Source: Armatimonas sp. (GTDB lineage Bacteria; Armatimonadota; Armatimonadia; Armatimonadales; Armatimonadaceae). From it: a DNA stretch of 61,625 nt. Below are positions 2,936-46,703 of this stretch, in pieces; positions within the stretch are counted from its first letter, which is position 1; the number at the start of each line of letters is the position of its first letter. Location of the stretch: NCBI RefSeq assembly GCF_043757465.1, contig NZ_JAYVPL010000091.1, positions 1-61,625 of the forward strand, in the 5' to 3' direction. The notes under the pieces were generated by a model. That model did no database searches. It saw only the letters and a program-made list of their open reading frames with translations, and was not told the DNA's origin. The position numbers were made by a program, and so were the translations under genes.

Positions 2936-5671
2936 CTACCCGCCGATCTTTTTCTTCTCGCCCTCTTTGGGCTTAACAGTCTCTTTGGGCTTCGTGCTGT
3001 CCTTGGGCTTCACAATTTCCTTGGGCTTGTCTTTGTCCGGGATACTGAACTCAGGCAGCTTGTCCTTGAGCTTGGACTGCATCTGCTTTTGGGTGTCTTC
3101 CCGCAGCTTTCGGGCTTCGTCTGAGTCTCGGACGATGCGCGGGGTGAGGAAGACGAGCAGCTCAGTCTTGCTCTTGGTGGTTGAGTTGGACTGGAAGAGC
3201 TTGCCCAGCACGGGAATATCGCCCAGCACCGGGAGTTTATTGACCGTGGCCGAGATGGAGTCCTTGATAATCCCTCCCAGCACAATCGTCTCACCGTCTT
3301 TGACACTGACCGTGGTCTGGGCCTCGCGCTGATTGATGATTGGAGCATTGAAGTCCGTGTAGCGCACAAAGTCGTTGGCGGTCTGGGTAACATCCATCGT
3401 GACATAGCCATTGGACGTAATACGGGGCGTGACCGTCAGAATGATTCCCACATCGAGAAACGAGTAGTTAAACGTCAGCACCCCATTGGCATTGGTCTGC
3501 TGACTGGTCACATACGGCAAGCTCTGGCTGATATTGATCTCCGCAGTGGAGTTGTTACTCGTGAAGATACGCGGTGAGGAGAGCACCTCGAAGCGTGCAT
3601 CGGTCTTGAGTGCCTGAAGGAACGCGCCGTACTGGCCTCCCGTGAGCGTGTAGCGCATGCCCTGAGGCTGGGTTGATGTGGTCTGACTGCCAAACTGAAC
3701 CGTCCCTGCGCCCTTGGTGTCTTTGGCTCCGAGCGCCCCCAGCACACTGCCGGTTCCCTGGGTGAAGTTCCACTCCACCCCCATTTTATTGGTGGCATCC
3801 AGGCTCGCCTCGACAATCAGTGTCTCGATCATCACCTGCTCGGGGATCTTATCAAGCTGCTCGACGATCTGCTGTAGCAGCGCACGGTTCTCGGGCGATG
3901 TCACGATAATGATGCTATTGGTGTTGATGTCCGGGATGACAGTCACCTGCCCCGTGAGATCGCGCAGGTTCACCACGCGGCCATTGGCATCGAGCCCACG
4001 GGTTCCCTGGCTCTGCTGCGACGAGCGAGTGGTACCTCCCTGGCCACCGCCGAAGCCGCCGAAGCCCCCCCCCCCAAAGCCACCGAAGCCGCCAAAGCCT
4101 TGCTGAACAGTGACATTGGTCGCTAGCTCACCCGCGTTCGCCGTCGGGTCCGCGAGCCCCACGGAGATCGGTGCATCTTGGCTCCGCCCCCCTAGCGATG
4201 CAGGGCTGTTGCTGCCGCCACCGCCGGTGTTGCGACTATTTGTGTTGTTTCGACTCGCTGCCCCGGTCTGTCCTGTCGTGGTGCGTCCTGTATTGCGAGA
4301 GTTTGAGCGGCTCCCAAAGCTCTGGCTCAGCACATCGGCCATCTGATCGGCGCGCGCATTCTCCAGAGTAATTACGAACGTACTGTTCTCAAACGTAATG
4401 GGCTTGTCCAGCTCTTTAACCACTTTACCGACAAGATCCAGGTTTTCCTGTGTGCCGGTAATAATCAGCGAGTTGGTTCGTCCCTCCGCCACGACATTAC
4501 CCTGTCCCGCTGCCGCGCCGCCACGCCCCCCGAAGCCCCCAAAGCCACCGCCGCCGCCGAAGCGCTGGTCAATGGTCTGCTGCGAACCCGTTGCGCCGCC
4601 CCGCCCGCGAGGGATATTGGCGATGAGTACGTTCTGTACAACGGTTACTAGATCGGATGCATTGGCGAACTGAAGCGGGAAGACCTGGGATTTTTGCGGC
4701 TGCTCAGTCTGCTTATCTATCTCCTCGATAAGATCCGCGACTTGACCTTGCTCCCGTGTGGGTGCGTTCACAATCACCGAGTTGGAGTAGTCATCGGCAG
4801 AGGCACGTACCACGGAGGCGCTAGCCCCACCCCGCCCGAAGCCACCGCCACCAAACAGGCTTGCTAAGCCCCCGCCGCCTTGGCCACCGCCACCAAACAT
4901 ACTGGAGAAGCCGCCGCCGCGCTGACCACCGCCGCCAAAGCCACCGCCACCACGCTGCGGGTCGGGATCAGGGCCTGCACTAGGGCCATTACCCCCGCCA
5001 CCAGGCGCAGTAGTCGGGGGAATCCCCCCGGTTGCGCCCGGGATACCACCGCCCAGAAGCCCTGCCAGAGGATTGTTCTGCTGCCCGGAACCCGCAAAGA
5101 CATCGTTGATCACGCGAGCCACTTGCGAGGCACTGGCGTACTTGAGCTGGTAGACCTTCGGAGCCGTACTGGTGGTGCTACCGCCGCCACGGCCAGAGAA
5201 CATACTGGGATCAAATCCCGTGGGAAAGCCGGTCCCACGCCCACTACTACCGCCACGACCGGACTGTGGGCGGGCCTTGATCATGAGAAAATTCCCGCTC
5301 TTCGTCATGTCAAAGTTCCGGAGCCCCAGCGCAGCATTGAGCTGTGCGAAAGCATCTTTGAGTGTTTGACTCGTCGGACTCTGAAGCGTGAGTACCCCCG
5401 TCAAGGTGGGGTCTTTCACGAAGGCGATCCCACTGGCCTCGCTAAAAACACTGAGCACAGCATCCACGCCTGCATTGCGGAAGTCTAGCTTCAGACGGGT
5501 CTTGGGATTGAGCTTGAACTGCTCCCACGCGGGCTTGGGGAAGTCCATTGCGCCCCCGCCCCCGAAATTGCCAAAGCCGCCCTGGTCGAACTGGGCGAGC
5601 GCGGCAGAAGGTGTGACAGTCACTGCCAGTAGCAGTAGCGGAAAGTGACGAAAGATTCTGTTTGTTTTCAT
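2936..5671 (-). CDS. gspD: Type II secretion / type IV pilus secretin (GspD/PilQ family), with Gly-rich linkers and a Lys/Pro-rich C-terminal tail
   Basis: 911 aa with an N-terminal signal peptide (MKTNRIFRHFPLLLLAVTVTPSAALA). The C-terminal secretin domain carries the canonical motifs (VLSSPRIFTSNNSTAEINISQ...LGGIIKD...NKLPVLGDIPVLGKLFQS...ELLVFLTPRIV). Several N-domains are separated by GGFGGFGGGG-type low-complexity linkers. Last gene of the gsp operon; its ATG overlaps the stop of the upstream gene (ATGA). Confidence 0.85.
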   Translation of the reverse strand: MKTNRIFRHFPLLLLAVTVTPSAALAQFDQGGFGNFGGGGAMDFPKPAWEQFKLNPKTRLKLDFRNAGVDAVLSVFSEASGIAFVKDPTLTGVLTLQSPTSQTLKDAFAQLNAALGLRNFDMTKSGNFLMIKARPQSGRGGSSGRGTGFPTGFDPSMFSGRGGGSTTSTAPKVYQLKYASASQVARVINDVFAGSGQQNNPLAGLLGGGIPGATGGIPPTTAPGGGGNGPSAGPDPDPQRGGGGFGGGGQRGGGFSSMFGGGGQGGGGLASLFGGGGFGRGGASASVVRASADDYSNSVIVNAPTREQGQVADLIEEIDKQTEQPQKSQVFPLQFANASDLVTVVQNVLIANIPRGRGGATGSQQTIDQRFGGGGGFGGFGGRGGAAAGQGNVVAEGRTNSLIITGTQENLDLVGKVVKELDKPITFENSTFVITLENARADQMADVLSQSFGSRSNSRNTGRTTTGQTGAASRNNTNSRNTGGGGSNSPASLGGRSQDAPISVGLADPTANAGELATNVTVQQGFGGFGGFGGGGFGGFGGGQGGTTRSSQQSQGTRGLDANGRVVNLRDLTGQVTVIPDINTNSIIIVTSPENRALLQQIVEQLDKIPEQVMIETLIVEASLDATNKMGVEWNFTQGTGSVLGALGAKDTKGAGTVQFGSQTTSTQPQGMRYTLTGGQYGAFLQALKTDARFEVLSSPRIFTSNNSTAEINISQSLPYVTSQQTNANGVLTFNYSFLDVGIILTVTPRITSNGYVTMDVTQTANDFVRYTDFNAPIINQREAQTTVSVKDGETIVLGGIIKDSISATVNKLPVLGDIPVLGKLFQSNSTTKSKTELLVFLTPRIVRDSDEARKLREDTQKQMQSKLKDKLPEFSIPDKDKPKEIVKPKDSTKPKETVKPKEGEKKKIGG

Positions 5672-41387: not shown

Positions 41388-42350
41388 CTATCCTCGCACA
41401 ACCTTGAGTGCGTTGCTGCCTTTCTCGTTGCCGGTCTTGGTGACGACATAGACTTTGACAAGAACGCCCTCGCCGCTTTCGATAAGCTCCAGGCTGCCGT
41501 GCCAGGTGAGGGTATCGGCACTGATCATGGCGACCACGGCCTCATTGCGAGTGTTGTAGCTAGGCAGAGGTGCGACACGGACACTGTAGTGATCGAGCTG
41601 GTCGTTGGCAGAGGCGGTCCAGGCAAGCTGGGCGCAGGTGTGGTCGGTGCTCCACTGCCCGCTTAACACCACGGCCTCGGGGGTGCTGCCCCCTGTGGGA
41701 TAAAGGCTGGGCACGGTGGTGAGCAAGGGGTGCGCGGCCTCGAAGTGAGCAACCACGGCGTTTTTATACTGGCGCAAACGGGTGACAAGCTCGGTGCGGA
41801 GGGTGTCACGGGTGCGCCGGTCTACGGCAAGCCCCTGCTCTTGAAGGCTAATCTGCTTATACACATCTTGCAGGGCAACTAATTCCTGCTGAAAGTTTGG
41901 CAGGGTGTAGCCCCCAGCGAGCTTCAAGCCCCCGCTGATCGCCTCGTCCCCAACCGCCACGTTAATTTTTTGCCAGAGGGTGTCCATCTCGGTGAAAGGC
42001 TTGAGTGTCCCGGCCATGTCTGCGGTCGCCAGCGGAAGCGTGGGGAGTGTCTTTGCAAACGGTGTTCCGTCGAGCGCACTCTTCACCGCCCCTCGAAACT
42101 GCGTCAGCCTTGGACGGAGCTTCGTCTTAAGCTGATCGCGCCTACGTGCCAGCGTCGCCAGGATCAGCACCGCCGCATCTACTTTTTGAACGAGCGTCGT
42201 TATATTAATCTGATCCGCAACAAGATTGCTGAGGCTGTAGCCCCCTTTAAGCTCTAGCGCGTCTGGAGCAAGGCTAACATTAACCCGCTCCCAGTGACTC
42301 GCCACATTTCCCAATGTCACCTGAAACCCACTGATGGTTGTAATCGGCAT
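41388..42350 (-). CDS. Hypothetical protein with an internal tandem duplication and a C-terminal beta-sandwich-like region; downstream partner of the STAND NTPase
   Basis: 320 aa. Two about 100 aa segments share the pattern L.LKGGYSL.N....I......V........L..RR..L...L...L.Q (residues ~20-125 and ~130-235). C-terminus ...HYSVRVAPLP...LVKVYVVTKTG is FN3-like. Lies 72 bp downstream of the NB-ARC gene on the same strand. Confidence 0.5.
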   Translation of the reverse strand: MPITTISGFQVTLGNVASHWERVNVSLAPDALELKGGYSLSNLVADQINITTLVQKVDAAVLILATLARRRDQLKTKLRPRLTQFRGAVKSALDGTPFAKTLPTLPLATADMAGTLKPFTEMDTLWQKINVAVGDEAISGGLKLAGGYTLPNFQQELVALQDVYKQISLQEQGLAVDRRTRDTLRTELVTRLRQYKNAVVAHFEAAHPLLTTVPSLYPTGGSTPEAVVLSGQWSTDHTCAQLAWTASANDQLDHYSVRVAPLPSYNTRNEAVVAMISADTLTWHGSLELIESGEGVLVKVYVVTKTGNEKGSNALKVVRG

Positions 42351-42422
42351 CTAAATTCTTTCCTCAATAGCATTGATGCTAGTCGTTATTGTACCACTCT
42401 GAAACAAAAACAGCACGGCAAT

Positions 42423-45400
42423 TTAACTTGGCGTATCTACGAAATCCAGCAAAGGTAATCTGTCAATCCACATATTTAATTCTTGCAAAACTATCAACAA
42501 CGATTGTAACGTCTCTTGTGTAATGGGATGATGTCTCCCCAGCATGTTATTAAATATTTTAAATGCTTTTTTTAGTAGTGGCACGGCGTCTGCTTTTTTC
42601 CCCATGTAATAATACATTACCGCCAAATTGTTGAGGCTTTGTGCAGTATCGGGATGATTGGCACCAAGCGACACTTCATAGATCAAAAGAGCGCGTTCAA
42701 ACAGAGGAAGCGCGGCGGCATAGTCACCCTGAGATTTGTACAGTTCCGCCAAGTTGTTGAGGCTAGTAGCAGTAAAGGGATGATTGGCACCAAGTGACAT
42801 TTCGCGAATCGAAAGAGCGCGTTCATATAGAAGAAGCGCAGCGGCATAGTTACCCTGAGATTCATACAGTCCTGCTAAGTTGCTGAGGCTTCTAGCGGTA
42901 TCGGGATGATTGGCACCAAGCGACATTTCACTGATCAAAAGAGCGCGTTCAAACAGAGGAAGCACGGCAGCATAGTTGCCCTGAGATTTATATAGCATTG
43001 CCAAATTATTAAGGCTAGTAGCGGTATTGGGATGATTGGCACCAAGAGACATTTCGCGAATCGAAAGAGCGCGTTCAAACAGAGGAAGTGCGGCAGCATA
43101 GTTACCCTGAGATTTATATAGCATTGCCAAATTATTAAGGCTAGTAGCGGTATTGGGATGATTGGCACCAAGAGACATTTCGCGAATCGAAAGAGCACGT
43201 TCAGACAGAGGAAGCGCGGCAGCATAGTTACCCTGAGATTCATACAGTTCTGCTAAGTTGCTGAGGCTTCTAGCGGTATCAGGATGATTGGCACCAAGCG
43301 ACGTTTCATAGATCAAAAGAGCGCGTTTGTACAAAGGAAGCGCGGCAGCATAGTCACCCTGAGATTTGTACAATCCTGCCAAGTTGCTAAGGCTAGTAGC
43401 AGTAGAGGGATGATTGGCACCAAGCGACATTTCACTGATCAAAAGAGCGCGTTCAAACAGAGGAAGCGCGGCAGCATAGTTGCCCTGAGATTTATATAGC
43501 ATTGCCAAATTATTAAGGCTAGTAGCAGTAGAGGGATGATTGGCACCAAGTGACATTTCGCGAATCGAAAGAGCGCGTTCATACAGAGGAAGCGCGACGA
43601 CATAGTTGCCCTGAGATTCATGCAGTCCTGCTAAGTTGTTGAGGCTAGTAGCAGTAGAGGGATGATTGGCACCAAGTGACATTTCGCGAATCGAAAGAGC
43701 GCGTTCAAACAGAGGAAGCGCGGCAGCATAGTCACCCTGAGATTCATGCAGTCCTGCTAAGTTGCTGAGGCTTCCAGCGGTATCAGGATGATCGGCACCA
43801 AGCGACGTTTCACAGATCAAAAGAGCACGTTCAGACAGAGGAAGCGCGGCGGCATAGTTGCCCTGAGATTCATGCAGTCCTGCTAAGTTGTTGAGGCTAG
43901 TAGCAGTATCAGGATGATCGGCACCAAGAGACATTTCACTGATCAAAAGAGCGCGTTCAAACAGAGGAAGTGCGGCAGCATAGTTACCCTGAGATTTATA
44001 TAGCATTGCCAAATTATTAAGGCTAGTAGCGGTATCAGGATGATTGGCGCCAAGCGACATTTCACTGATCAAAAGAGCGCGTTCAAACAGAGGAAGCGCG
44101 GCAGCATAGTCACCCTGAGATTTATGCAGTCCTGCTAAGTTGTTGAGGCTAGTAGCGGTATTGGGATGATCGGCACCAAGCGACATTTCACTGATCAAAA
44201 GAGCGCGTTCAAACAGAGGAAGCGCGGCGGCATAGTTGCCCTGAGATTCATACAACATTGCCAAGTTGTTGAGGCTAGTAGCGGTATTGGGATGATTGGC
44301 ACCAAGAGACATTTCACAGATTGAAAGAGCGCGTTCAAACAGAGGAAGCGCGGCAGCATAGTTGCCCTGAATGCGATACAGTGCACCCAGATTATTGAGA
44401 CTTTCAGCGGTATCAGGATGATTGGCGCCAGGCGACGTTTCGCGAATCGAAAGAGCACGTTTGTACAAAGGAAGCACGGTGGCATAATCAGCTTGGCGTT
44501 CTTTATGAAACCCTAGCTGGTTACAGAGCAACCCTGCGTGCTCTGTTTCAATGCCATGTCGAAAGATAATATCGGTAATTTTTTGTGAATGGCTTGCCAG
44601 ATGGCTGTAGTGATCCCAGCGAGTATTCCAATCGGTGGGGTGAGATTGCGAAACGGCGGTGATTGCAAGTTGCTGGTACTGGCTGTGTTCTTCCTCTGTC
44701 AAGCCATCAAGAATAACATCTTGTACCAACCGGTGCAGAGAGAAAAGCTGAGTGCCATAGACATAGCTCTCGTCGGTGCGGACACTCATAAGGGAAAACT
44801 TGAGGAGTCTTTGGATAGTTACATCGTAGACCAAAGCGTCAGCGGCGCACTTCTGGAGTGGCTCGGAGAGATGCGAACCAGCTTGTTTAAGAATGACATC
44901 GGGGATGTCGTCGGGGGCGAGAAACGCACACACACGAAGGAATTCGATGGCGGCTTCTCGGGCGACGGCGGCGGTTTCTTCATCCTCGCTGTCTTCCGGC
45001 CAGACTTCCCCAATACGCTGAACAGCGACCTCAAAGGTCGTCGCTACCGACTCATGCGAGATACCGGCCTGCGCTCCCCGGCGCTTGCGGAGCCTTGCCC
45101 CGCTCTGTGCATAGAGTGCCTGGTAGCTTGCCACTGTGCTAACGGAAGCTGCGATATAGGCACCGGCCTGATCCAGCGCAAGGGGCAAGCCGTCTACCGT
45201 GTGAGAGAATTTCTTTGCCGCTTTCCGCTCGGGAGATCCTTGGGGGTCGTGTCCGGCGCGAGTAAGGAGCAAGTCCGCCCCGGCATCATCGTTTAGCTCT
45301 TGCAGAGACACCCCGGCATCTTTAGGGACGATCTGATGGATTCGGGTGGTGATTAGCACCTGCCCCCCTCCCCCGGTGGGAAGATACGGCGCAATCGTTT

Positions 45401-46703
45401 GCAGGTCTTCGACGTTATCCAGAACCAGGAGGTAGTCGTCGTGGGTAGAAAGCTCCTGGCGCACGGCTTCACGTACCACGGAAATATCGGGAGTCTCGGC
45501 CTGCGGGAGCCGCAAGACGTAGGCGACACTCCGGTACTCTTCGTCTAGCGTGGCGGCACTCTCCGCACGCACCCAAAGAATTCCCAGGGGATACGACGCG
45601 GCGCTTGCATGGGCATACTCTAGCGCCGTCTGGGTTTTCCCCATCCCTCCCAGGCCAAAGAGATATGTTTTTTGGTGGCGCTCAAAGGCCTGGGAGAGCG
45701 CGGCAAGCTCCGCACGTCGCCCCACAAAGCCTTGGTTTCTTTCGTCAATCCGCCACGCCCGCTCTTTACCTGCCCAGAGCCGGGGATCAATACGCACTGC
45801 TTTTGCCACTTCCTTGGGCAAAGCATCTAGTCGTGTATCAAGATGTGCCTTCAGCCCGGCAACATCCACCCCGATTTTCTGAAGAATCTCTTGATGCCGT
45901 TGCAGTAAATCCACATCCAGCTTCCGGGCAAAGTCTTCTCCCCACGCAATGCAGCGCTTCTCAAATGCCTCAAAAGTGACTGTATTTGTCGCCTTTTGCT
46001 CCCGTGCAAAGGCCACCAGCTCCCCCAGCATTAAGAGTGTCAGCCCCGCGTGCCCTTTCCCATCCCCGGCAGCGTCGTGCTTGATAACTTCACGGAGTGC
46101 CTTTGGGAAAATCTCAGGTAGTAGCGCCGCCAGCCGCCAATAAATGGCCTCACCCGTGGTGGCTGTCACCATTCCCTCGGGCGCTTTCTCCCACCCCAGA
46201 TTTTTCAGTAGCGCGAACCAGTCGTCCGTGTGCAGTATCCGAACGTGCCCAACCGCCTCGGGAGTGACCGCGAACACACCCGGGAGCGACGCTTCCCGTA
46301 GAGCATCCGGGATTGCCCGCTCACTTTTGACTTGCTCTTCCCAGCGCGGCCCGATTCCCCGCGCCCAGGCAAGCACCGGCTCCTTTTCGGCCCGATGCAG
46401 CGGCGGCTCAAGCTGCTCGACAGCCGCCAGGAGAGAAATTGAGAGTGCCTGCCCCACCAGCTCCGTCAGATCGTGGTTTCGGAGCAGTTCCTCATGCCCC
46501 GTGAGCCGCTGTACCAGATTCTCGGAGACATCCCCACCAAACACCTCCCCGCTCAGGCTTTTTAGAAGATCGATCAGTGTTGCGCCTGCAACGGCCACTG
46601 CTGCCTTTCCCGGTTCCACGGCTCCCATTAGGGTCGCGGCAACTAGAAGCGTTCCGAACGTCAGCATTCGGACAGTCGTGTTTTGAAGAGTAGGTCGAGC
46701 CAT
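42423..46703 (-). CDS. STAND NTPase: unknown N-terminal domain + NB-ARC + TPR array (bacterial NLR-like protein)
   Basis: 1426 aa. NB-ARC P-loop (GLGGMGKTQTALEYAH), hhhhD Walker B (YLLVLDNVED) and GxP-like region. C-terminus has about 15 x 42-aa TPR_10/12-type repeats (ALSIREMSLGANHPNTATSLNNLAMLYKSQGNYAAALPLFER). The N-terminal ~330 aa has no recognisable motif and begins with a hydrophobic stretch (MLTFGTLLVAATLMGAV). An internal Met at 46667 is an alternative start. Confidence 0.85.
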   Translation of the reverse strand: MARPTLQNTTVRMLTFGTLLVAATLMGAVEPGKAAVAVAGATLIDLLKSLSGEVFGGDVSENLVQRLTGHEELLRNHDLTELVGQALSISLLAAVEQLEPPLHRAEKEPVLAWARGIGPRWEEQVKSERAIPDALREASLPGVFAVTPEAVGHVRILHTDDWFALLKNLGWEKAPEGMVTATTGEAIYWRLAALLPEIFPKALREVIKHDAAGDGKGHAGLTLLMLGELVAFAREQKATNTVTFEAFEKRCIAWGEDFARKLDVDLLQRHQEILQKIGVDVAGLKAHLDTRLDALPKEVAKAVRIDPRLWAGKERAWRIDERNQGFVGRRAELAALSQAFERHQKTYLFGLGGMGKTQTALEYAHASAASYPLGILWVRAESAATLDEEYRSVAYVLRLPQAETPDISVVREAVRQELSTHDDYLLVLDNVEDLQTIAPYLPTGGGGQVLITTRIHQIVPKDAGVSLQELNDDAGADLLLTRAGHDPQGSPERKAAKKFSHTVDGLPLALDQAGAYIAASVSTVASYQALYAQSGARLRKRRGAQAGISHESVATTFEVAVQRIGEVWPEDSEDEETAAVAREAAIEFLRVCAFLAPDDIPDVILKQAGSHLSEPLQKCAADALVYDVTIQRLLKFSLMSVRTDESYVYGTQLFSLHRLVQDVILDGLTEEEHSQYQQLAITAVSQSHPTDWNTRWDHYSHLASHSQKITDIIFRHGIETEHAGLLCNQLGFHKERQADYATVLPLYKRALSIRETSPGANHPDTAESLNNLGALYRIQGNYAAALPLFERALSICEMSLGANHPNTATSLNNLAMLYESQGNYAAALPLFERALLISEMSLGADHPNTATSLNNLAGLHKSQGDYAAALPLFERALLISEMSLGANHPDTATSLNNLAMLYKSQGNYAAALPLFERALLISEMSLGADHPDTATSLNNLAGLHESQGNYAAALPLSERALLICETSLGADHPDTAGSLSNLAGLHESQGDYAAALPLFERALSIREMSLGANHPSTATSLNNLAGLHESQGNYVVALPLYERALSIREMSLGANHPSTATSLNNLAMLYKSQGNYAAALPLFERALLISEMSLGANHPSTATSLSNLAGLYKSQGDYAAALPLYKRALLIYETSLGANHPDTARSLSNLAELYESQGNYAAALPLSERALSIREMSLGANHPNTATSLNNLAMLYKSQGNYAAALPLFERALSIREMSLGANHPNTATSLNNLAMLYKSQGNYAAVLPLFERALLISEMSLGANHPDTARSLSNLAGLYESQGNYAAALLLYERALSIREMSLGANHPFTATSLNNLAELYKSQGDYAAALPLFERALLIYEVSLGANHPDTAQSLNNLAVMYYYMGKKADAVPLLKKAFKIFNNMLGRHHPITQETLQSLLIVLQELNMWIDRLPLLDFVDTPS
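42567..44456 (-). repeat. About 15 tandem, near-identical 126-bp in-frame repeats encoding the TPR units
   Basis: Recurrent near-identical blocks such as gcgcgttcaaacagaggaagcgcggcagcatagt...ccctgagatt...attggcaccaag..gacatttc. Units differ at only a handful of codons. Coordinates derived from the protein repeat register. Confidence 0.85.

Follow-up and report, generated by a model that had tools for sequence, protein, structure and literature searches.

An NLR-like STAND protein of Armatimonas with a shuffled, putatively membrane-targeting N-terminal domain and a co-inherited FN3 neighbour

A contig of 61,625 nucleotides (61.6 kb) from a metagenome-assembled genome (MAG) of Armatimonas sp. 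(NZ_JAYVPL010000091.1), which is analysed here over its whole length and called the window, contains a gene for a STAND protein of 1426 amino acids (aa) with an NLR-like layout and, downstream of it, a gene for a 320-aa protein that we name the partner (WP_395091361.1, a 'hypothetical protein' in RefSeq). In agreement with a preliminary description made from the DNA letters, both open reading frames (ORFs) were confirmed on the minus strand at a distance of 72 bp (Table 1). The spacer between them contains a GAGGA Shine-Dalgarno-like site, and a terminator scan revealed no terminator-like hairpin in it. The RefSeq record of the STAND protein (WP_395091363.1, 1391 aa, named 'tetratricopeptide repeat protein') skips the ATG at 46703. 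As judged by sequence comparison, this start is 35 codons too late, the stretch left out being conserved at the protein level in three relatives (P0031-P0033). The omitted codons encode the first hydrophobic helix, and the public annotation thus clips the most suggestive feature of the protein.

Table 1. Coordinates of the STAND and partner genes, of their domains and motifs, and of two further genes of the window
Feature	Position	Strand	Basis or remark
STAND/NLR-like gene, 1426 aa, ATG	42423..46703	-	ORF call; Pfam NB-ARC, DUF7779, TPR_12
Conserved N-domain core (aa 1-240), all-alpha	45984..46703	-	
Codons skipped in RefSeq	46599-46703	-	
Hydrophobic N-terminal segment (aa 9-50), small-residue-rich, putative membrane-inserting hairpin	46554..46679	-	hydropathy
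Variable helical coiled-coil-like linker, N-domain to NTPase (aa 241-320)	45744..45983	-	AlphaFold2 helices
NB-ARC/AP-ATPase module and winged-helix/DUF7779 (aa 321-700)	44604..45743	-	Pfam NB-ARC, DUF7779, motifs
Walker A, GLGGMGKT (aa 350-357)	45633-45656	-	read from sequence
Walker B, LLVLDNVED (aa 425-433)	45405-45431	-	read from sequence
TTR (sensor-1), LITTR (aa 450-454)	45342-45356	-	read from sequence
GLPL, GLPLAL (aa 505-510)	45174-45191	-	read from sequence
MHD-like, LHRLVQD (aa 656-662)	44718-44738	-	read from sequence
TPR_12-type sensor array (aa 701-1426), sixteen 42-aa units	42426..44603	-	Pfam, repeat analysis
DNA tandem repeat within the array	42612-44486	-	repeat analysis
Spacer, 72 bp, STAND stop to partner start	42351..42422	-	GAGGA Shine-Dalgarno-like site
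Partner gene, 320 aa, ATG	41388..42350	-	ORF call
Duplicated helical hairpin	41715..42338	-	hhalign, AlphaFold2
Hairpin repeat 1 (aa 5-105)	42036-42338	-	
Hairpin repeat 2 (aa 106-212)	41715-42035	-	
C-terminal FN3 domain (aa 225-320), conserved TGNEKGS strand	41391..41678	-	
Zn_ribbon_8 gene, 118 aa	46746-47102	+	divergent from STAND
SecA gene, 1259 aa	26280-30059	-	

Sequence comparison identifies the larger protein as an intact STAND of the NB-ARC/AP-ATPase clade with an NLR-like architecture, since all NTPase motifs are intact and Pfam NB-ARC scores above its gathering cut-off at residues 347-540 (E-value of 3.6e-11; 43.3 bits versus 23.5). In Pfam, DUF7779 is found at residues 583-672 and is followed by about 15 strong TPR_12 or TPR_10 stretches from residue ~700 to ~1420. 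The NCBIfam model NF040586 (FxSxx_TPR, type equivalog) yields 561.7 bits for a cut-off of 300, its best stretch covering residues 320-705. Among solved structures, the nucleotide-binding oligomerisation domain (NOD) of AfsR (PDB 8k60, 8jke) comes nearest in sequence, with an E-value of 8e-11 for residues 27-241 of the query segment. The C-terminal part is a sensor-type, superstructure-forming array of tetratricopeptide repeats (TPR) with sixteen units in perfect register, 15 of them full 42-aa units and the last one divergent with 41 aa, a copy number that is given as assembled in the MAG contig and is not independently checkable there. At the DNA level, the array is a 126-bp repeat present in 14.9 copies with 85% identity, and the variation between units is concentrated at positions 9, 12, 19, 22, 26, 34, 39 and 41. 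The three-part layout claimed by the preliminary description (N-terminal domain, NB-ARC and TPR) is therefore borne out by the Pfam matches, the motifs and the array. No DNA-binding domain (SARP, HTH, LuxR) was matched by Pfam across the 1426 aa, nor in the N-terminal domain at E≤10.

The TPR array differs in composition from the rest of the gene, with a GC content of 0.47 and a GC content at third codon positions (GC3) of 0.405, compared with a GC3 of 0.60-0.62 in the N-terminal domain and NB-ARC module and of 0.65-0.76 in flanking genes. Orthologous arrays have an equally low GC content. A recent transfer from cyanobacteria was considered as the origin of this bias and rejected, the nearest arrays being those of Armatimonadota (55-59% aa identity versus 34-38% for the cyanobacterial ones).

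The most distinctive part of the protein is its N-terminal domain (hereafter N-domain). No match was obtained for residues 1-320 in NCBIfam, PADLOC or PHROGs, nor in Pfam with the threshold relaxed to E≤10, and Pfam revealed no enzymatic or catalytic domain in the N-domain, matches at E≤10 included; the earlier claim that this region resembles no catalogued effector is upheld for these four collections. Its hydrophobic beginning, also noticed in the preliminary description, is supported by a Kyte-Doolittle 19-residue mean of 1.71 at residues 11-29. AlphaFold2 places helices at residues 9-28 and 35-50, where the predicted local distance difference test (pLDDT) is below 50. Further landmarks are LxNxDL (residues 74-79), W121, W162 and FPKALREV(I/L)KxD..GK (residues 199-216). 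The linker that leads to the NTPase has modelled helices at residues 244-276, 281-294 and 297-305, varies in length across the family, and gives only coiled-coil noise against Pfam and the PDB.

An exhaustive HMMER search covering 1.84 billion representatives recovered 205 relatives of the N-domain at E≤1e-3, 55 of which at E≤1e-10. For nearly all matches listed, the similarity begins no more than some tens of residues from the N-terminus of proteins of 500-1400 aa. A word-index homology search had returned three close relatives with the N-domain and seven with the family alignment; the view of the N-domain as an orphan, based on these three relatives, was overturned by the exhaustive search. 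The preliminary description had presented the domain as a novelty, and this has to be corrected: it is not unique, its family comprising at least 205 cluster representatives and occurring on both NB-ARC and NACHT modules. Among 57 members scanned, NB-ARC is present in 23, NACHT in 10 and TPR_12 in 24, and named carriers include Ancylothrix, Kamptonema, Pyrinomonadaceae and Armatimonadota. Because it stands at or near the N-terminus in NB-ARC as well as NACHT proteins, the N-domain behaves, as far as sequences tell, like a module that is shuffled among STAND proteins at their N-terminal end. When species-representative genomes were scanned by pattern, with a narrow alignment biased toward the cyanobacterial FPKALREVLK subfamily, 50 loci were recovered, nearly all in filamentous cyanobacteria (Planktothrix, Phormidium, Arthrospira, Spirulina, Roseofilum and others). 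Two copies are present in several genomes, and Planktothrix paucivesiculata has one NB-ARC-TPR and one NACHT version.

Across this family, the hydrophobic tip is maintained, with a Kyte-Doolittle 19-residue mean of at least 1.6 in the equivalent region of 78% of 116 members, and glycine, alanine, serine or threonine make up 42% of the residues in that region. Conservation further extends to an LxNxDLTxAVGxAI motif, two near-invariant tryptophans and the signature FPKALREVLKxDFxxGGKAFAGL. At the same time, the N-domain is the fastest-evolving part of the STAND protein: between Armatimonas lineages it displays 56% identity and a ratio of nonsynonymous to synonymous divergence (dN/dS) of 0.33, compared with 69% and 0.16 for NB-ARC. 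Such a fast evolution is as expected of an effector under conflict. In a pair of Oscillatoriales loci (L014:8001-11328 and L017:8001-11297), the NB-ARC-TPR part is 87% identical and the N-domain 53%; this suggests swapping or very fast evolution of the N-domain, together with the existence of split effector/NLR variants. In L014, a stop codon separates the N-domain and NB-ARC-TPR parts into ORFs of 333 and 748 aa.

Further variants were observed among the NACHT-type members (L032, L039, L043, L045, L048, L058), which are often ORFs of ~550 aa ending inside the NACHT domain; in several cases an ORF of ~1000 aa starts 12-90 bp downstream. The NCAB1/NCC-H domains and the HEAT or pentapeptide repeats recorded in a census of neighbours probably belong to these ~1000-aa ORFs, the matches of the census not being assigned to individual ORFs, and the paired arrangement points to split NLR genes. 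The census of cyanobacterial flanks (113 ORFs) yielded scattered PIN, Uma2, MazF and DUF433 genes, candidate defence genes and C-terminal halves of split NACHT genes, and no conserved neighbour gene was found among these ORFs. Besides, the N-domain is also carried by a further Armatimonadota STAND (P0068, 1234 aa), whose gene has a Cas3-like_C_2 gene directly upstream and UvdE downstream (noted at L064:4619-5884).

The partner has an internal duplication (hhalign probability of 99.4%, E-value of 4.7e-21) and a confident AlphaFold2 model (pLDDT of 87.8), so that the duplication and the beta-sandwich tail noted in the preliminary description both stand. The model consists of two hairpins, each made of a ~22-residue helix, a GGYTL loop and a 53-residue helix (helices 6-27 and 40-92, then 112-132 and 150-202), followed by a seven-strand beta-sandwich at residues 225-320 that can be superposed on FN3 domains. 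No PDB match to the helical half was present among the matches listed, and the protein has no match in Pfam, NCBIfam, PADLOC or PHROGs. All source-named members among its 30 homologues are from Armatimonas or Fimbriimonadaceae/Fimbriimonadales, most of the 30 being metagenome sequences, and none of the ~30 has a Pfam domain on record. On this basis, the partner is a lineage-specific FN3 protein of an Armatimonadota-specific family. One homologue (P0011, L009:6595-7842) is called with a 94-aa N-terminal extension of NFIASR-like repeats. Its start is probably mis-called because the conserved MPITT start lies inside the called ORF.

Comparison of Armatimonas lineages reveals that both genes diverge much faster than their surroundings. 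Flanking genes have an aa identity of 89-98% (dN 0.01-0.07, dS 0.27-0.65), the partner of 73-76% (dN 0.17-0.19, dS 0.93) and the STAND protein of 56-69% (dN 0.23-0.39, dS 1.2-1.5), so that dS is 2-4 times and dN 5-20 times higher in the pair than in the flanks. Moreover, the STAND gene is disrupted in some of these lineages. In L010-L012 (L010:10001-12642), the orthologue is frameshifted near residue 240, within a GGGGG run, as seen in 11 contigs from several samples, and in L006:1001-3640 it is interrupted by in-frame stop codons at residues 696 and 779. The partner is intact beside both disrupted orthologues, a situation that fits a dispensable conflict gene. Fast divergence and pseudogenisation of the STAND gene are typical of conflict genes, in spite of the core context in which it resides.

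Taken together, these data lead us to favour a single-chain NLR-like switch in which the N-domain is the membrane-targeting output and the partner is not obligatory, a reading to which we give about an even chance. The assignment of the output follows an analogy: with its conserved hydrophobic tip, the N-domain is probably a membrane-targeting module. In such a switch, a ligand, most likely a foreign protein, would bind the TPR array and release autoinhibition; the NB-ARC module would then exchange its nucleotide and the STAND protein would oligomerise, which would cluster the N-domains. The clustered hydrophobic hairpins could insert into or perturb the cytoplasmic membrane, and this attack would stop the growth of the infected cell or kill it. 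A bolder version holds that the N-domain (~240 aa) defines a new class of NLR-activated, membrane-permeabilising executioners, analogous and not homologous to CC/HeLo/MLKL and represented by more than 200 NB-ARC/NACHT clusters in filamentous cyanobacteria, Acidobacteria and Armatimonadota, with a co-evolving cassette in Armatimonas where the FN3 protein would be an adaptor or guarded target. As a whole, we consider this version unlikely.

Several observations weigh against the single-chain membrane switch. The membrane role of the N-domain rests on hydropathy and analogy, and AlphaFold2 confidence falls below 50 for residues 1-70, a stretch that includes the putative hairpin. The immune role is deduced from architecture and not from context because defence genes are missing nearby and PADLOC recognises only a generic TPR model in the STAND protein (PDLC01169); in keeping with the preliminary description, neither protein matches a PADLOC defence model. 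When 28 ORFs from across the whole window were scanned with Pfam, all assigned domains were housekeeping ones, four ORFs had no match, and no defence or mobile-element domain was found. In addition, the frame of the locus is syntenic around the orthologues in other Armatimonas lineages. The preliminary description had named a conserved core-genome context as the finding that would speak against it, and such a context, free of mobile or defence genes, is what the locus displays. The core context and the lack of a system-level PADLOC match would suit a STAND scaffold or regulator tethered to the membrane that has no immune function but a housekeeping or developmental one, is encoded by a core-genome gene and uses the hydrophobic N-terminus as a simple anchor. 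Two external arguments point in that direction as well, namely that defence clades are mixed with many non-defence clades in STAND phylogenies (PMC13581612) and that the nearest solved NOD belongs to a transcription regulator, AfsR. However, a housekeeping scaffold is difficult to reconcile with a gene that diverges very fast relative to its flanks, is disrupted in two lineages and encodes near-identical TPR units with few hypervariable positions. The shuffling of the N-domain between NB-ARC and NACHT, its presence in more than one copy in some cyanobacterial genomes, the toxin-antitoxin and candidate defence genes among the cyanobacterial flanks and the failure to find a DNA-binding or enzymatic domain argue in the same sense, and we regard a non-immune function as quite improbable. 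A still weaker candidate comes from the name of the NCBIfam model, according to which the protein would supply the TPR component to an FxSxx-COOH system for peptide maturation. Although the NF040586 score exceeds the curated cut-off, the match is limited to the generic NB-ARC and TPR parts, and the RefSeq name is merely that of a TPR protein. FxSxx-type systems have been described as an AP-ATPase with an N-terminal TIR beside peptide-processing genes (PMC7159879), and neither this TIR nor such genes occur at the locus. The window contains no radical-SAM/SPASM maturase, its sole CxxxCxxC enzyme being MoaA, and no credible precursor ORF lies nearby, since FxSxx-ending ORFs are short and overlap other genes or are far away. 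With neither maturase nor precursor found, this system was rejected for the locus and its chances appear vanishingly small.

The remaining question is whether the partner is an integral component. In a genuine two-gene module, the co-transcribed FN3 protein would serve as adaptor or regulator, or else as the guarded or decoy target whose perturbation is sensed by the TPR array. Such a functional link is possible, and the organisation of the pair speaks for it and against a dispensable partner: the genes share one strand, with a 72-bp spacer that holds a ribosome-binding-like site and lacks a terminator, they are adjacent in every one of the five to six Armatimonas lineages observed, and their offset is identical in three of them (window, L010 and L007). 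They also stay together while a CHRD gene changes sides: in L010 this gene lies upstream of STAND, in L007 it separates the partner from the SIS gene, and the window has no copy of it. The increase in dN and dS over the flanks is common to both genes. Nonetheless, all these supporting loci represent one genus and one chromosomal site, where adjacency may be mere inheritance. Elsewhere the two proteins go separate ways. No N-domain, NB-ARC or TPR_12 gene was found within 4-10 kb of five distant partner loci (30-42% identity), and no partner homologue is present in any of the 50 cyanobacterial N-domain loci or at the other Armatimonadota N-domain locus (L064). As the partner occurs alone in other genera, it is not obligatory, and it remains intact beside the frameshifted or stop-carrying STAND orthologues mentioned above. 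No motif is common to the STAND N-terminus and the partner, and a pair of the BASS/amyloid effector-NLR kind was rejected on the same ground (best BLASTP E-value of 2.4 between N-domain and partner). From the two-gene module proposed in the preliminary description, we thus retain adjacency, fixed offset and co-divergence within Armatimonas and abandon the idea of a general pairing. According to the sequences at hand, the pair is a cassette that is co-inherited and co-diverging within one genus and not a conserved system, and we find a genuine two-gene module rather doubtful. Two of the more distant partner homologues, in L008 and L009, adjoin a divergent gene for a PLDc_2/RE_NgoFVII-like nuclease and a gene for a 430-470-aa HTH_31 protein (noted at L008:7197-8060 and 4328-5629, and at L009:5337-6200 and 3643-5067). 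This different neighbourhood is possibly conflict-related.

Concerning the wider surroundings, the window contains type II secretion system genes, RecG, KatG, MoeA, SecA, LpxC-FabZ-LpxA-LpxB, a GT4 glycosyltransferase, a DUF1559 pseudopilin, a phosphoesterase, an inositol monophosphatase and a MurQ-like SIS protein, after which come the partner and the STAND protein. Beyond them lie a divergent Zn-ribbon gene, SPFH/Band-7 with NfeD-like YqiJ, GH32, MoaA and MnmE. No tRNA gene was found in the window. The Zn_ribbon_8 gene product (FmdB-like, CxxC...CxxC) has a low-complexity tail rich in T, E, K and A. As the gene is located 42 bp from the STAND start codon, the STAND promoter must overlap it. 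A functional link between STAND and the upstream SPFH/NfeD operon was rejected in view of this divergent gene lying in between, to which a CHRD gene is added elsewhere. SecA is unusually long, and the spread of the 290-position SecA_DEAD profile over residues 89-620 implies a large insertion.

NLR-like STANDs are abundant in multicellular bacteria, and many of their N-terminal output domains are uncharacterised. In this respect, the system described here is of a known kind and its N-terminal module is the new element. A description of this module was not found in the literature searched, and its absence there is no proof that it is undescribed. The locus opens access to an output-domain family of at least 205 clusters, which has a sharp signature but no entry in Pfam, NCBIfam, PADLOC or PHROGs. 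If the N-domain is a membrane-active executioner, it would represent an independent bacterial origin of direct membrane attack by an oligomerised NLR and would supply a compact, testable module. Besides, a STAND gene and its FN3 neighbour in a conserved frame offer a natural system for following in-place evolution of immune-type genes outside defence islands.

How the Armatimonas protein relates to known systems is best seen part by part. NLR-like STANDs of multicellular bacteria have been documented (PMC7159879, PMC8195603, PMC13581612), and the closest general likeness is to the NB-ARC/AP-ATPase-TPR proteins among them (Kaur et al. 2020, PMC7159879; Dyrka et al. 2020, bioRxiv 10.1101/2020.01.06.895854). 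These consist of the same three parts, i.e. a variable N-module, an AP-ATPase NOD and TPR_12-type repeats, and share the internally conserved repeats and the bias to filamentous cyanobacteria and other filament- or aggregate-forming bacteria. Unlike in these proteins, the N-module here is not a TIR, caspase/CHAT, PNPase, Death-like/EAD or Bell domain, and it has no match to the Pfam NACHT N-terminal helical (NNH) families or to EADs; the gene also lies outside a vWA-MoxR or peptide-processing system. CC-NLR, HeLo, MLKL and Bell domains have been described as attacking membranes when clustered (bioRxiv 10.1101/2020.01.06.895854). By analogy, the plant CC domain (ZAR1 resistosome), fungal HeLo/HELL, the MLKL four-helix bundle and Bell may have in common with the N-domain an all-alpha N-module with a hydrophobic N-terminal helix on an oligomerising NLR. 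A hydrophobic N-terminal helix of this sort is indeed found in the N-domain, whereas a comparison of folds with these four-helix-bundle executioners gave no similarity and no detectable homology.

The single-gene Avs/bNACHT STANDs (Gao et al.; Kibby et al., bioRxiv 10.1101/2022.07.19.500537; Lee et al. 2026, PMC13581612) equally combine an N-terminal effector, a STAND NTPase and a large helical-repeat sensor in one chain, and the likeness is reinforced by those members of the N-domain family that sit on NACHT modules and have NCAB1 and NCC-H as C-terminal domains. The Armatimonas protein differs from them in that it matches no PADLOC Avs or bNACHT model, is encoded outside a defence island and has a sensor built of regular, near-identical TPR units instead of a unique, fold-specific sensor. 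Finally, the NB-ARC and TPR layout is shared with AfsR, the SARP-NB-ARC-TPR regulator of Streptomyces, which carries an N-terminal SARP DNA-binding domain where the Armatimonas STAND protein has a hydrophobic helical module in its place.

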